From Acinetobacter wanghuae (GTDB taxonomy: Bacteria; Pseudomonadota; Gammaproteobacteria; Pseudomonadales; Moraxellaceae), in the NCBI RefSeq assembly GCF_009557235.1, contig NZ_CP045650.1, forward strand, positions 600,001-632,000: a stretch of 32,000 bases of DNA. The letters run 5' to 3'. The notes beneath the pieces are model-generated. The model ran no database searches. It worked only from the letters and a program-made list of their open reading frames with translations, and was not told the origin of the DNA. Positions 27,302 to 30,004 of the stretch are shown here, piece by piece; position 1 is the stretch's first letter, and every line of letters begins with the position of its first letter. The translations under genes were made by a program, and so were the position numbers.

Positions 27302-30004
27302 TTATTTATACCGTGCCCACCCAGAAGTAGTTGATTCGACTTTTATACCAGTGTCGGTAGAAGTAACTGTTTCTGTCTTAATCCCAGTATGATTTTCTTT
27401 AGGAATTGTATAAACAAAACCAGTACCAAAAGTATTAGTTTCTTTATCGTATCCCTGACTACTCATATTGCCCACTAAACCACCTTTGGTAATACATCCT
27501 GCATCGATACTATGTGATTTCATTTTATTACGTGCAAGGGTATCGCCATAGATTAAGGTACAAGTACCGATATCAATATAATCATTGGACATCAATGCTA
27601 CGTAGCCTAAATCTAGTTTAGGTACTAATCTGGATATATTGTTATTGTCATCAATATTCACATCTAGAATTTTACCCGTGGAAGGATCGCGATCCATAGA
27701 GTAAGAAAATTCTGATTCATTTTTACATAGATTTGTTGGAATTAAATATACATTTGAAATAGTTTCAGGGTTAGTATTTGGCAATAGACTTGAGAAATCT
27801 TGTGATCCATCTGCTGTTTTTAAAGCTCTGTTACAGATGATTGCTGCATCATTTTTTTCCCGTAATATGTTATATGGTGAGTAGATTCTTGGTGATGTTG
27901 CTGAAGCAGAGATACGACCCTCAGCCAAGATGGTATTTGTGTAAGTTGATTTTGAGTTGCCACCTGCAAGAGCTCCAGCAATGGTCACTGGTCCATCGAA
28001 ATACAAAATTCCAGGAGCAAAAGCCGCATTATCTAGTGAAGATATACCACTGGATGATCTTAAGTTGTAGTAGCTGCCATCGTAATGATAGTCTTCAGTA
28101 AAACCCTCACTAGATCTAGTAATATCCAAACGAGGTAAATAGCCAACTATTTTACTACTACATTTTTTTCCATTGACTTGTGCACATATTGCTCCACTTC
28201 TATTCAGTGTAATAATCTCCCACCAAGGTTTAACTCTATCTATCCCATAATCTGCTAGATAGAAAGGATTGCCATTGTTCTCTTGAATAGGTGAGAAAGA
28301 ACCATTTTTAATGACTTGTTGTTCGTAAGCACCTGTAGTTGCATTTTTCCCATATATGTAAATATCGCCTGTTACTTTATTTTTTAAATGGTTTAAATAT
28401 ACTCGGGTAAATCCGCCGATGCTTCTTTGAAATATATAATTTGCATCAAGCTTATATTGTTTGACGTCTATGAGCATTCCAAAGTTCATTAGGTCATTAA
28501 TTGAATTGTAGATACTTATTGAATTAACTGGTGGTTCCATATTAATTACATAATGATCTTTCATGTATGTAAGTATCTCAGCTGTAGTTTTTTTAGATCG
28601 ATTACCACCAATTCTTGTTATATTGTTTATGCTACCGCTATATATAGCATTTCCATGAATTTTTGAAGTTATGCTTATCTCAATATTTCCATTAATGTAC
28701 GCACTTTGACGCACATCACTGCTTAAATCTGCATCAATTTTTCCATTCTTTGTATATACTGAGCCTTTAACTTCAGCATTATATAAACGAATATACGTAC
28801 CTGCACTTAAGTACTGGCTAGATTCACTTGTAGCTTCGGCATTATCTAAATGTATATATTGGTTAGACTGAATACTACCTAAAACCTTGCTTCTCAACTG
28901 TATTCCACGTCCAACTTTTACATAATTTGAAGCGTAAATATTTCCTTGAACCGTATTATTACCATCAAGTAATAACGAATTACCGACTTCTACCCACCCT
29001 CGAGCAATAATATTGCCTTTAACAGTATTTCCTCCTCCTAATTCTGTGCCTATTTGAACATTACGCGCATTAATATTATTTGCCGAAGAGCTTAGGATTA
29101 AAATAACATCATTATTCGAATTAATATTTGCAGAAGTTTGACTTTGGTATAATTTTACTTGACCTACAGCATCAATATTTTGTGCTGAAGAGCTAGTCGC
29201 AATATAAACTTTTCCTAAAGTTTTTACATTTTGTGCATGGACATGGGTTTGAAGTGTTACATCTCCTTCAGCGCTAATATTACCAAATTGAGCAGGTTTA
29301 GTAATTATGCCCTCATGAATAGTAACCGAACCTTTGGCATTCAAATGAACATTACGAAATTTTTCACATTCGGAAGCAATACAATTTATATCTATATTAC
29401 CTTTGGAATTGATAGTTAGTTCACTGATATTTTCCAGTTTAAAATCTGCTAATATTGCTACATTACCATCTACATTAATAGTTACTTTTGAATTAGGTAG
29501 CTCTGTTTTTATTGTGTTACCACTAAAATGAACATTACCACCTAAGCTTGCTTGGATGGCTTGGTCCACGACATTAACACTACCATTTACAATAGTGATG
29601 TCATATGTAACAGTGATTGTGGTGGCTGCTTGAGCGCTACTATTATTTGCTGCAATATCTGCTATAACGGTACATGTGCCCCCTGCAGTATGGCAACCAA
29701 TGATTTTAGTGACAGTTGCATTTACTTTATGGTTGTCTGAATATTTTAAAGTAATATTTTGACCACTTAATTGTTGAATATTTTTAAAGTTTTCGGATCC
29801 CTTTTTTGTGAGATATTCCCTAAATGCACTGACACCCGCCCAACCCAAAATTTGTGCATTGGTTTGTGCATGTGCAGCGGTTGCCGCTTCTTTTTTAGTC
29901 ATCAGTGCTCGTGCAACCGAAGCCGTAATTAACATGACTGTGATTCCTATGAGCAATACTAAAAGAATTGTTGCCATGCCGTTTTGTTTTTTAAATGTTT
30001 GCAT
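27302..30004 (-). CDS. 900-aa pilus-associated protein with a PilX-type hydrophobic N-terminus fused to a beta-solenoid repeat region and a large C-terminal domain
   Basis: GAGGA RBS. MQTFKKQNGMATILLVLLIGITVMLITASVA resembles the PilX/GspK-position N-terminal domain, with no Phe+1/Glu+5 prepilin site. Aa ~153-466 contain ~17-20-aa periodic motifs (KGSVTIHEG, EGDVTLQTH, LGKVYIATS, VGQVKLYQS, KGNIIARGWVEVG, QGNIYASNYVKVG, LGSIQSNQYIHLD, NGNIEISITSKIHGNAIYSG). The C-terminal tail is TGIKTETVTSTDTGIKVESTTSG. Confidence 0.7.
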   Translation of the reverse strand: MQTFKKQNGMATILLVLLIGITVMLITASVARALMTKKEAATAAHAQTNAQILGWAGVSAFREYLTKKGSENFKNIQQLSGQNITLKYSDNHKVNATVTKIIGCHTAGGTCTVIADIAANNSSAQAATTITVTYDITIVNGSVNVVDQAIQASLGGNVHFSGNTIKTELPNSKVTINVDGNVAILADFKLENISELTINSKGNIDINCIASECEKFRNVHLNAKGSVTIHEGIITKPAQFGNISAEGDVTLQTHVHAQNVKTLGKVYIATSSSAQNIDAVGQVKLYQSQTSANINSNNDVILILSSSANNINARNVQIGTELGGGNTVKGNIIARGWVEVGNSLLLDGNNTVQGNIYASNYVKVGRGIQLRSKVLGSIQSNQYIHLDNAEATSESSQYLSAGTYIRLYNAEVKGSVYTKNGKIDADLSSDVRQSAYINGNIEISITSKIHGNAIYSGSINNITRIGGNRSKKTTAEILTYMKDHYVINMEPPVNSISIYNSINDLMNFGMLIDVKQYKLDANYIFQRSIGGFTRVYLNHLKNKVTGDIYIYGKNATTGAYEQQVIKNGSFSPIQENNGNPFYLADYGIDRVKPWWEIITLNRSGAICAQVNGKKCSSKIVGYLPRLDITRSSEGFTEDYHYDGSYYNLRSSSGISSLDNAAFAPGILYFDGPVTIAGALAGGNSKSTYTNTILAEGRISASATSPRIYSPYNILREKNDAAIICNRALKTADGSQDFSSLLPNTNPETISNVYLIPTNLCKNESEFSYSMDRDPSTGKILDVNIDDNNNISRLVPKLDLGYVALMSNDYIDIGTCTLIYGDTLARNKMKSHSIDAGCITKGGLVGNMSSQGYDKETNTFGTGFVYTIPKENHTGIKTETVTSTDTGIKVESTTSGWARYK

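Follow-up and report, generated by a model that had tools for sequence, protein, structure and literature searches.

A probable tip subunit in the K position of a five-gene type IV pilin cassette from Acinetobacter wanghuae and its gammaproteobacterial family

The stretch of DNA analyzed here (the window, 32,000 nt in total) stems from Acinetobacter wanghuae (GCF_009557235.1, NZ_CP045650.1, positions 600,001-632,000 of the forward strand) and harbors a prepilin operon, the last gene of which encodes the protein of 900 amino acids (aa) that is the subject of this study. Five open reading frames (ORFs) are arranged head to tail on the minus strand from 31985 to 27302 and encode 136, 192 (as listed), 135, 217 and 900 aa; they are referred to as genes 1 to 5. 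In an earlier note on this DNA, the 900-aa ORF at 27302-30004 had been assigned to the end of a prepilin operon, and both the intact ORF and the five-gene order were recovered in our analysis. The features of the operon and of its downstream flank are listed below, with a slash at the end of each prepilin leader.

31575..31985, minus strand: gene 1, major-type (G/PilE-like) type IV pilin of 136 aa (Pfam N_methyl, E = 7.6e-10; ComP_DUS fold, E = 7e-9)
31046..31624, minus strand: gene 2, H-like (GspH/FimT/PpdA-like) prepilin with the leader ...PQKG/LTLIELM, ORF listed with 192 aa (N_methyl at aa 27-49)
30667..31074, minus strand: gene 3, I-like (PilV/GspI-like) prepilin of 135 aa, ...QRG/VTLVESL (N_methyl, E = 8e-6)
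30035..30688, minus strand: gene 4, J-like (PilW/GspJ/PpdB-like) prepilin of 217 aa, ...KNNG/FTMLEVL (N_methyl, E = 8.7e-6)
27302..30004, minus strand: gene 5, probable K-position tip pilin of 900 aa with an ATG start (100% identical to GFH30_02875 of Acinetobacter wanghuae)
27244..27284 (about), minus strand: Rho-independent terminator of the operon, a hairpin followed by the U-run UUUUUAUU (RNA fold, -16.8 kcal/mol)
26172..27107, minus strand: dusC, a downstream neighbor outside the pilin system (NCBIfam DusC, E = 1.8e-89; Pfam Dus, E = 1.9e-69)

All four upstream prepilins carry a Glu at position +5 and match the Pfam model N_methyl. Resemblances to subtypes were found with the NCBIfam models, all of them below the curated cut-offs: gene 1 resembles PpdD and GspG (E = 2.3e-11 for GspG), gene 2 ComGD, PpdA, GspH and XpsH, gene 3 PilV (4e-5) and GspI (8e-3), and gene 4 PpdB (2e-7), ComGF and HpsC. 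Based on these resemblances the gene order is read as G-H-I-J followed by a large gene in the K position. The region upstream of gene 1, where its promoter would be sought, falls outside the window. The true start of gene 2 is ambiguous, as the listed ORF opens 26 codons before MPQKG/LTLIELM and overlaps the end of gene 1 by 50 nt; the listed start is probably too far upstream and the true one is probably one of the internal ATGs.

Gene 5 starts 30 nt after the stop codon of gene 4 and is preceded by a ribosome-binding site (GAGGA at 30015-30011, 6 nt 5' of the ATG). In the databases its product GFH30_02875 is labeled "hypothetical protein" or "DUF342 domain-containing protein". The terminator hairpin at about 27284-27244 was not picked up by a simple terminator scan but was detected by RNA folding (z-score -3.7; none of 200 shuffled sequences was equally stable). 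It is followed by dusC, which marks the conserved chromosomal site of the cassette, and no PilY1-like gene is present at the operon in the window, which agrees with the description of this flank in the earlier note. The GC content of gene 5 (0.33-0.37) is lower than that of most of the window (about 0.40-0.44), positions 27001-30000 being AT-richer, and this is consistent with horizontal exchange of the allele of the K gene.

The architecture of the gene 5 product was analyzed by means of sequence conservation and of a full-length AlphaFold2 (AF2) model from a 58-sequence alignment (predicted local distance difference test (pLDDT) 84.5, predicted template modeling score (pTM) 0.73). Features read directly from the sequence are the type of leader, the place in the operon, the Cys pairs, the conservation of both termini and the variability of the middle, whereas the pilin-like N-terminal domain, the solenoid, the distal domain and the terminal strand come from the model alone. 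The following parts were distinguished.

29978..30004, minus strand: basic leader, aa 1-9, ending in the invariant Gly9 (presumed prepilin peptidase site G9/M10)
29792..29977, minus strand: predicted pilin alpha1 helix, aa 10-71, consisting of a hydrophobic alpha1N and an amphipathic, conserved alpha1C (HAQTNAQ..W.GV.AFR.YL; AF2 helix 11-71)
29567..29758, minus strand: predicted small pilin beta-sheet of four strands, aa 83-146 (AF2 strands 83-88, 92-103, 111-121 and 126-146)
28595..29560, minus strand: predicted beta-solenoid, aa 149-470, with about 18 coils that repeat every 17-18 aa or so (AF2, motif enrichment and coil register)
27395..28585, minus strand: Cys-paired distal domain, aa 474-870 (invariant columns and stand-alone AF2 model)
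27305..27394, minus strand: Thr/Ser-rich linker and conserved terminal strand, aa 871-900 (AF2 strand 881-899; conservation of W896 and Y899)

The N-terminus reads MQTFKKQNG/MATILLVLLIGITVMLITASVA and thus begins with MATIL after the Gly. Q7, G9, A11 and T12 are invariant in 58 homologues. With a Gly at -1, a Leu at +5 and no Glu at +5, the leader is of the GspK/PilX style (class III-like), and it would be cleaved between G9 and M10. According to the model, the N-terminal part adopts a pilin fold, in which the long alpha1 helix is followed by a small antiparallel beta-sheet; the invariant pair Cys104/Cys111 lies inside this sheet.

Degenerate beta-helix turns had been proposed before for aa ~153-466, and this was borne out: the motif G[NSDK][IV]x[ILV] occurs six times in this region, compared to 0.47 ± 0.66 times in 2000 shuffles (maximum 3), and the modeled coils show a regular strand pattern with a pLDDT mostly about 90. 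A simple hydrophobic autocorrelation picks up the repeat only weakly, since the length of the coils varies between 13 and 22 aa. The solenoid contains a further invariant pair, Cys208/Cys213. The distal domain, which had likewise been proposed as a Cys-containing C-terminal domain, is modeled with confidence as a mixed, mainly beta fold and contains six invariant or nearly invariant Cys residues (607, 615, 724, 760, 815 and 837) as well as the motifs DANYIF, GAIC..C..IVGYLPR, APGIxYF(D/E)G, TNTxLAEG, SPRIYSPYN and NLCK. In a stand-alone AF2 model of aa 471-900, built on a shallower alignment of 20 sequences, the distal domain was again confident (pLDDT 81, pTM 0.82). The protein thus has five conserved Cys pairs (104/111, 208/213, 607/615, 724/760 and 815/837), which would fit an extracytoplasmic location.

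The tandem TGIK(T/V)E(T/S) tail of the earlier note is present as TGIKTET (aa 873-879) and TGIKVES (aa 885-891). This duplication is confined to the closest relatives and, not being conserved past them, was dropped as a functional repeat. The extreme C-terminus is conserved: of the last five residues, W896-A-R-Y899-K (preceded by S-G), W896 is invariant and Y899 is conserved in at least 90% of the sequences. In the full-length model the linker is of low confidence, while the terminal strand 881-899 is continuous over 19 residues and the last 10 aa reach a pLDDT of 84. In the model of aa 471-900 the last 24 residues form a coil with a pLDDT below 50, so that in these predictions a confident placement of the terminal strand requires the N-terminal 470 residues. 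All solenoid strands span 8 residues or fewer, and the only strand comparable to the terminal one is that of aa 126-146 in the pilin sheet. Since the tail needs aa 1-470 and only the strand 126-146 is similarly long, the C-terminus is suggested to return to the pilin sheet, and the simplest reading of the models is that the C-terminal strand completes this sheet in cis. The layout thus appears to be that of a K-type pilin with a large insertion before the last strand and not that of two joined genes.

To determine the distribution of the protein, as had been proposed in the earlier note, an exhaustive profile search over 1.84 billion representative proteins (clusters at 50% identity) was performed. 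It yielded 820 proteins at E ≤ 1e-3 and 314 at E ≤ 1e-10; the family therefore comprises at least 314 clusters, and it belongs to the Gammaproteobacteria. Named members are found in many environmental Acinetobacter, in Pseudomonas mendocina, P. dryadis, P. marincola, P. kuykendallii and P. citronellolis and in the genera Zestomonas, Dyella, Luteimonas, Stenotrophomonas, Hydrocarboniphaga and Cellvibrio. A search of a large protein database with an N-terminal profile gave 7 fragments only. The leader motif Q-x-G-[MVI]-A-T is found in 140 of the full-length members that were retrieved; 132 of these 140 have a Leu and none a Glu at +5, and 136 have W-x-[RK]-[YF]-x as their C-terminus. Mean identity to the query amounts to 74% in aa 1-70, 38% in the pilin sheet, 30% in the solenoid and 41% in the distal domain, so that the alpha1 region is the most conserved segment (74% versus 30-41% elsewhere).

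Scans of the whole protein, its N-terminal 150 aa, its C-terminal 430 aa and its relatives against Pfam and NCBIfam did not assign it to any curated family. When PDB sequences were searched with the protein, with the profile of the full family or with a profile of the N-termini in the wide family, only chance matches came up. Neither these searches nor Foldseek placed the protein in a characterized family such as the MshQ or PilY1 type. Family members are labeled as hypothetical, DUF342, FapA family, "beta strand repeat-containing" or "polymer-forming cytoskeletal protein". The DUF342, FapA and cytoskeletal labels are explained by weak matches in relatives, namely to Bactofilin in 16 and to FapA in 5 of the 58 family members, which are largely sub-threshold where scores were seen; the query itself shows neither. 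The protein is thus a sequence orphan and belongs to a widespread gammaproteobacterial family of known architecture.

The five-gene order recurs beyond the window: at least 14 related loci share it, and these belong to Acinetobacter, Pseudomonas, Luteimonas, Cellvibrio and metagenomes. It is conserved in six complete Acinetobacter loci and in one Pseudomonas-related locus, with metagenomic loci, Luteimonas yindakuii and Cellvibrio mixtus as further carriers. A pilin of 136-170 aa with a ComP_DUS match opens every related cassette examined, an H-like gene takes the second position in all cassettes, and the K gene comes last after H-I-J without a PilY1/PilC gene, an order also seen in the loci L010, L012, L013 and L015-L019. 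The neighborhoods of the cassette differ from locus to locus. A gene of about 310 aa follows it in most Acinetobacter loci and was confirmed as Dus in a second A. wanghuae strain (see below). In Luteimonas yindakuii (L018 16792-20198) pilS and pilR lie about 5 kb from the cassette, and in Cellvibrio mixtus (L019 11577-20319) the cassette is followed by a chemosensory cluster encoding a methyl-accepting chemotaxis protein (MCP), a response regulator, a STAS protein, CheA, CheW, two MCPs and CheR; these neighbors are possible regulatory links. K and J-like genes typical of Acinetobacter were also found on a 5-kb contig binned as 'uncultured Ignatzschineria sp.' (CANRON010000167.1, L001). The termini match protein P0022 of the Acinetobacter-dominated close family, and the contig is possibly a binning error or the product of a transfer.

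Pronounced variation of the K gene was detected between and within loci. The second A. wanghuae strain (GCA_048549275.1, JBIMAO010000028.1; locus L014) was compared at the site that corresponds to 26073-30162 of the window. While its dusC flank is 96% identical in DNA to the window, its K allele of 906 aa shows 35% protein identity, and the DNA is alignable over the first ~180 nt only. In this strain an insertion sequence (IS) transposase gene (DDE_Tnp_1, 310 aa) replaces the four prepilin genes, of which the last ~130 nt of the J-like gene are left. In a metagenomic locus (SRR11004892; L017 5802-16455, on the contig of L009) a single G-H-I-J set precedes an array of four K genes in tandem. 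They encode 698, 697, 694 and 740 aa with pairwise identities of 36-48%, and each product has the Q-x-G leader (A-T or A-S after the Gly) and the end ...LWS(R/K)(Y/F)L. In a second metagenome (SRR20241851; L015 2369-12097) two whole cassettes lie in tandem with only a HAD-hydrolase gene between them, and their K proteins are of 828 and 698 aa. Because of the hypervariability, the allelic replacement and the tandem K arrays, an exposed and selected surface is suggested, for instance that of an adhesin or of a phage or immune target, and not a generic DNA receptor.

In the earlier note no described counterpart of this architecture was known, which does not hold, as ComZ, cyanobacterial PilX/HpsA and CpaL/TadG are counterparts; all of these are K-type pilins in which a large insertion precedes a C-terminal strand that completes the pilin sheet in cis. 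ComZ of Thermus thermophilus is a GspK-like pilin with a beta-solenoid of ~380 residues between its penultimate and last strands; it binds DNA, and a place at the pilus tip has been argued for it (PMC6561018). Like the gene 5 product with its predicted solenoid, it is a large minor pilin encoded beside other minor pilins, and it is the top, non-significant Foldseek entry; the nearest folds of its solenoid are the DUF3494 ice-binding proteins, which recur in searches with the gene 5 product. However, sequence similarity to ComZ is not detectable and the structural match (E = 0.07) is not significant. The gene 5 product is ~350 residues longer with an extra Cys-paired domain of ~400 aa, and whereas ComZ is a DNA receptor of Deinococcota, here a hypervariable module is found in a gammaproteobacterium. 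In cyanobacteria all PilX homologues including those of the HpsA type were described to carry such a solenoid, some with extra undefined domains, and this solenoid was proposed to replace the PilY1 plug where PilY1 is absent, in contrast to the small PilX of Proteobacteria (bioRxiv 10.64898/2026.02.12.705559). The cyanobacterial PilX1-3/HpsA-type proteins share with gene 5 the PilX position and a beta-solenoid (predicted in the case of gene 5), which in the cyanobacterial proteins is triangular and inserted before the C-terminal strand; one subfamily has extended solenoids and additional undefined domains. No sequence relationship was shown for them, and the cassette of gene 5 is an orphan five-gene unit with its own major-type pilin.

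According to a recent report, PilK-family pilins receive their last strand in trans from PilC/PilY1, which contributes its C-terminal ~10 residues, and, as judged by modeling, also from MshQ, whereas GspK and CpaL donate it in cis; addition of a C-terminal strand by either route, cis or trans, was reported to license tip complexes in general (2026 PNAS, PMC13533445). The PilK homologue of the V. cholerae competence pilus and CpaL/TadG are further examples of the architecture (PMC13533445). CpaL is an apical subunit that completes its own sheet in cis, as is proposed for the gene 5 product, with ~470 residues between sheet and donor strand, but it belongs to a Tad (type IVc) system. GspK shares the leader with Gly at -1 and without Glu at +5, but its insertion is alpha-helical and lies midway in the sheet, where a solenoid before the last strand would be expected for the gene 5 product. 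For neither CpaL nor GspK was a relationship to the gene 5 product found at the level of hidden Markov models (HMMs).

With the pairs PilX + PilY1/PilC of type IVa pili and MshP + MshQ of MSHA pili, gene 5 shares the operon position after H-I-J, the presumed completion of the tip together with an exposed adhesin, and a conserved strand at the extreme C-terminus (PMC13533445). These pairs differ in consisting of two polypeptides with the strand given in trans, and the beta-propeller of PilY1 and the other domains of MshQ were not detected in the gene 5 product. MshQ, encoded after the K-like mshP, has LamG/ConA-like domains and no pilin N-terminus, whereas the gene 5 product itself has a K-type N-terminus. 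Modular pilins occur widely and in diverse architectures, and counts of them fall short when their modules have no database signatures (PMC8179133). Examples such as PilB/PilC of Streptococcus sanguinis, CofB and TcpB likewise display a functional module on a pilin at the tip, but there the module follows the pilin domain via a linker, while in the gene 5 product, as in ComZ, it appears to be inserted before the final strand. The gene 5 product does not have the IPR012902/N_methyl signature used to find modular pilins (Raynaud et al. 2021), yet the concept fits. The architecture therefore has precedent; new are an unstudied gammaproteobacterial family, its misannotation and an unusual multiplicity of tip genes.

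Taken together, the product of gene 5 is probably a tip subunit in the K position (PilX/GspK type), belonging to a type IV pilin cassette of five genes that is self-contained; anchor and exposed module would be combined in this subunit, and no separate PilY1 would be needed. This reading is supported by the four prepilins with Glu at +5 that precede a last gene with Gly at -1 and Leu at +5, and by the conserved helix (74%) and the terminal W-x-R/K-Y, which flank a middle that diverges to 30%. Exposure of the module is indicated since alleles of 35% identity occupy one site beside a 96% identical dusC and since four K paralogues stand in tandem. A single polypeptide that serves as tip anchor and exposed module is the best reading of these data. 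In a conceivable mechanism, prepilin peptidase would remove the leader ending in Gly9 and alpha1N would anchor the protein in the inner membrane. The predicted periplasmic part would then consist of the small pilin sheet, from which the ~18-coil solenoid and the disulfide-stabilized domain of ~400 residues project, before the chain returns and its last ~10 residues (W-x-R/K-Y) add the final strand of the sheet in cis. The I-J pair of the cassette, together with H, may recognize the completed K subunit and form an initiation complex, which would prime a filament on type IV pilus machinery whose genes lie at another site of the genome. Solenoid and distal domain would thereby be placed at the very tip as plug and ligand-binding module and replace a separate PilY1. 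For the exposed module, the role of an adhesin or receptor with strain-specific specificity is most likely, and an adhesin function is plausible.

Several results weigh against this reading. The models N_methyl (PF07963, TIGR02532), PilX_N and GspK did not match the gene 5 product (E ≤ 1-10). The PilX/GspK-style N-terminus claimed in the earlier note is for this reason based on the leader motif with Gly at -1 and no Glu at +5, on gene order and on the modeled helix; in one relative a faint match to the N-terminus of GspK was seen (E = 0.045, GspK positions 1-60). In an hhalign comparison with E. coli GspK only 20 leader residues aligned (probability 5.7%). When the full model was compared with the PDB by Foldseek, nothing significant was found; the weak list is headed by ComZ (6QVI; E = 0.07, probability 0.06, template modeling score below 0.1), followed by tapirins, ice-binding proteins and tailspikes, and the solenoid weakly resembles ComZ, tapirins and DUF3494 ice-binding solenoids both in Foldseek and in HMM searches. 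For the distal domain no Pfam match and, by Foldseek against the PDB and BFVD, nothing significant was obtained, DUF3494 ice-binding solenoids dominating both weak lists. The docking of the terminal strand on the pilin sheet is deduced from the confidence values and strand lengths of the models. Covariation between the N-terminal domain and the last 12 residues was not enriched either, as in 161 sequences (effective number, Meff, 138) only 7 of 2100 pairs exceeded the 99th percentile of mutual information after average product correction (APC). No genes for an assembly ATPase, a platform protein or a secretin adjoin the cassette in the loci examined. Finally, the K gene of the second A. wanghuae strain is intact without prepilin genes, which could reflect a decaying locus or a role of K that is independent of the cassette.

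Other functions of the cassette were considered as well. Species of Acinetobacter are often naturally competent, and gene 1 matches the pilin fold model ComP_DUS; the cassette might thus build or prime a competence pilus whose solenoid tip binds DNA for transformation. The ComP_DUS model, though, matches many ordinary pilins, and a solenoid and distal domain that are hypervariable (30% identity within the genus, 35% within the species) are unexpected for so generic a ligand. ComZ, the closest protein in architecture, does bind DNA by its solenoid (PMC6561018), but in Acinetobacter DNA binding has been assigned to FimT, a minor pilin of the canonical system (PMC12123422), and a ComZ-like DNA receptor is in our view unlikely. 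Little probability is also given to a pseudopilus as in the type II secretion system (T2SS) or a non-extruded 'endopilus', with G-H-I-J-K as a periplasmic piston or plug. The gene order is exactly that of the T2SS pseudopilins (E. coli gspG-K), and the sub-threshold GspG match of gene 1 and the faint match of one family member to the N-terminus of GspK point in the same direction. The alpha-domain typical of GspK is nevertheless absent, with no match to T2SS_GspK and an AF2 model that is all-beta after alpha1, T2SS core genes adjoin the cassette in no locus examined, and a hypervariable tip ~90 Å long suggests exposure on the outside.

It is also conceivable that the gene 5 product is not a pilin at all but a Sec-exported or membrane-anchored beta-helix or a cytoskeletal, DUF342 or FapA protein that is co-transcribed with prepilins. 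Such a view could draw on the source labels, the failure of the pilin HMMs, the persistence of the gene without prepilin genes in L014 and a possible signal peptidase I site past the hydrophobic stretch, read from the sequence as ASVA/R (after A31). Yet a Sec n-region would not be expected to show an invariant Q-x-G-[MVI]-A-T where the leader meets the helix, synteny with H-I-J-like prepilins is strict across gammaproteobacterial orders, and the conserved extreme C-terminus parallels those of GspK, CpaL and PilY1, all of which makes this explanation quite improbable. Its variant of a cytoplasmic bactofilin/FapA protein was ruled out by the export signal, the synteny and the five Cys pairs, which exclude a cytoplasmic cytoskeletal role; matches to Bactofilin/FapA are weak in relatives and absent from the gene 5 product itself. 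The earlier note had interpreted the protein as a fusion occupying the position of PilX and PilY1, with minor-pilin anchor and effector in one chain. The single polypeptide stands, but that a PilX gene has truly fused with an adhesin gene of the PilY1 or MshQ type is very improbable, and this idea was dropped, as such domains are not present. In favor of it, gene 5 lies where canonical operons have pilX and pilY1 (or mshP and mshQ), its product is about as large as PilY1 or MshQ, and its C-terminal strand motif corresponds in function to the one in PilY1 (PMC13533445). On the other side, the Neisseria_PilC domain matched neither the gene 5 product nor its 58 relatives, LamG domains were limited to one marginal match (Laminin_G_3, E = 0.005) in 1 of the 58 relatives, PilY1, PilC or any beta-propeller is absent from both Foldseek PDB lists (full model and distal domain), and the solenoid starts straight from the fourth pilin strand, as in ComZ.

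If the reading of gene 5 as a K-position tip subunit is correct, the solenoid-bearing PilX that replaces PilY1 would extend beyond Thermus and cyanobacteria to a new phylum and occur in Acinetobacter and Pseudomonas, where PilX is held to be small and always accompanied by PilY1. A systematic misannotation of probable surface-exposed tip proteins as DUF342, FapA or "polymer-forming cytoskeletal protein" would be corrected, and the recently proposed rule, according to which tip-complex assembly is licensed by a C-terminal beta-strand acting in cis or in trans, could be tested on a natural example. Hypervariable alleles and tandem K arrays suggest a route to altered specificity of adhesion or of phage receptors, which bears on colonization and phage susceptibility of Acinetobacter. 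More tentatively, the cassette might be a portable 'tip-swap' module, in which a conserved H-I-J base is combined with the N-terminal helix and C-terminal strand as a universal socket for divergent heads, and heads might be exchanged by allelic replacement, by tandem arrays of up to four K genes and by duplication of whole cassettes. This idea is doubtful at present; if true, it would reprogram tip binding without PilY1, and to date no type IV pili have been described to vary their tips in this way.

Rfam and tRNA scans of the window did not detect a non-coding RNA. A six-gene cluster on the plus strand (window 5408-13811), unrelated to the pilin cassette, resembles the fil locus of Acinetobacter. 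It encodes a DUF6160 protein, a Peptidase_C39-like protein, a 387-aa protein without a match, an outer membrane protein of the FadL/Toluene_X type, a FilE_C protein (E = 2.5e-67) and a 676-aa protein without a match. The fil-like cluster is presumably linked to thick pili and is a putative second surface-fiber system in the window. Further, an ORF of 141 aa with a GTG start lies at 25713-26138 on the plus strand, in a stretch of low GC content (0.35-0.37). It matches only positions 44-111 of the nuclease-related domain NERD, appears to be truncated at the N-terminus and is possibly a gene remnant.

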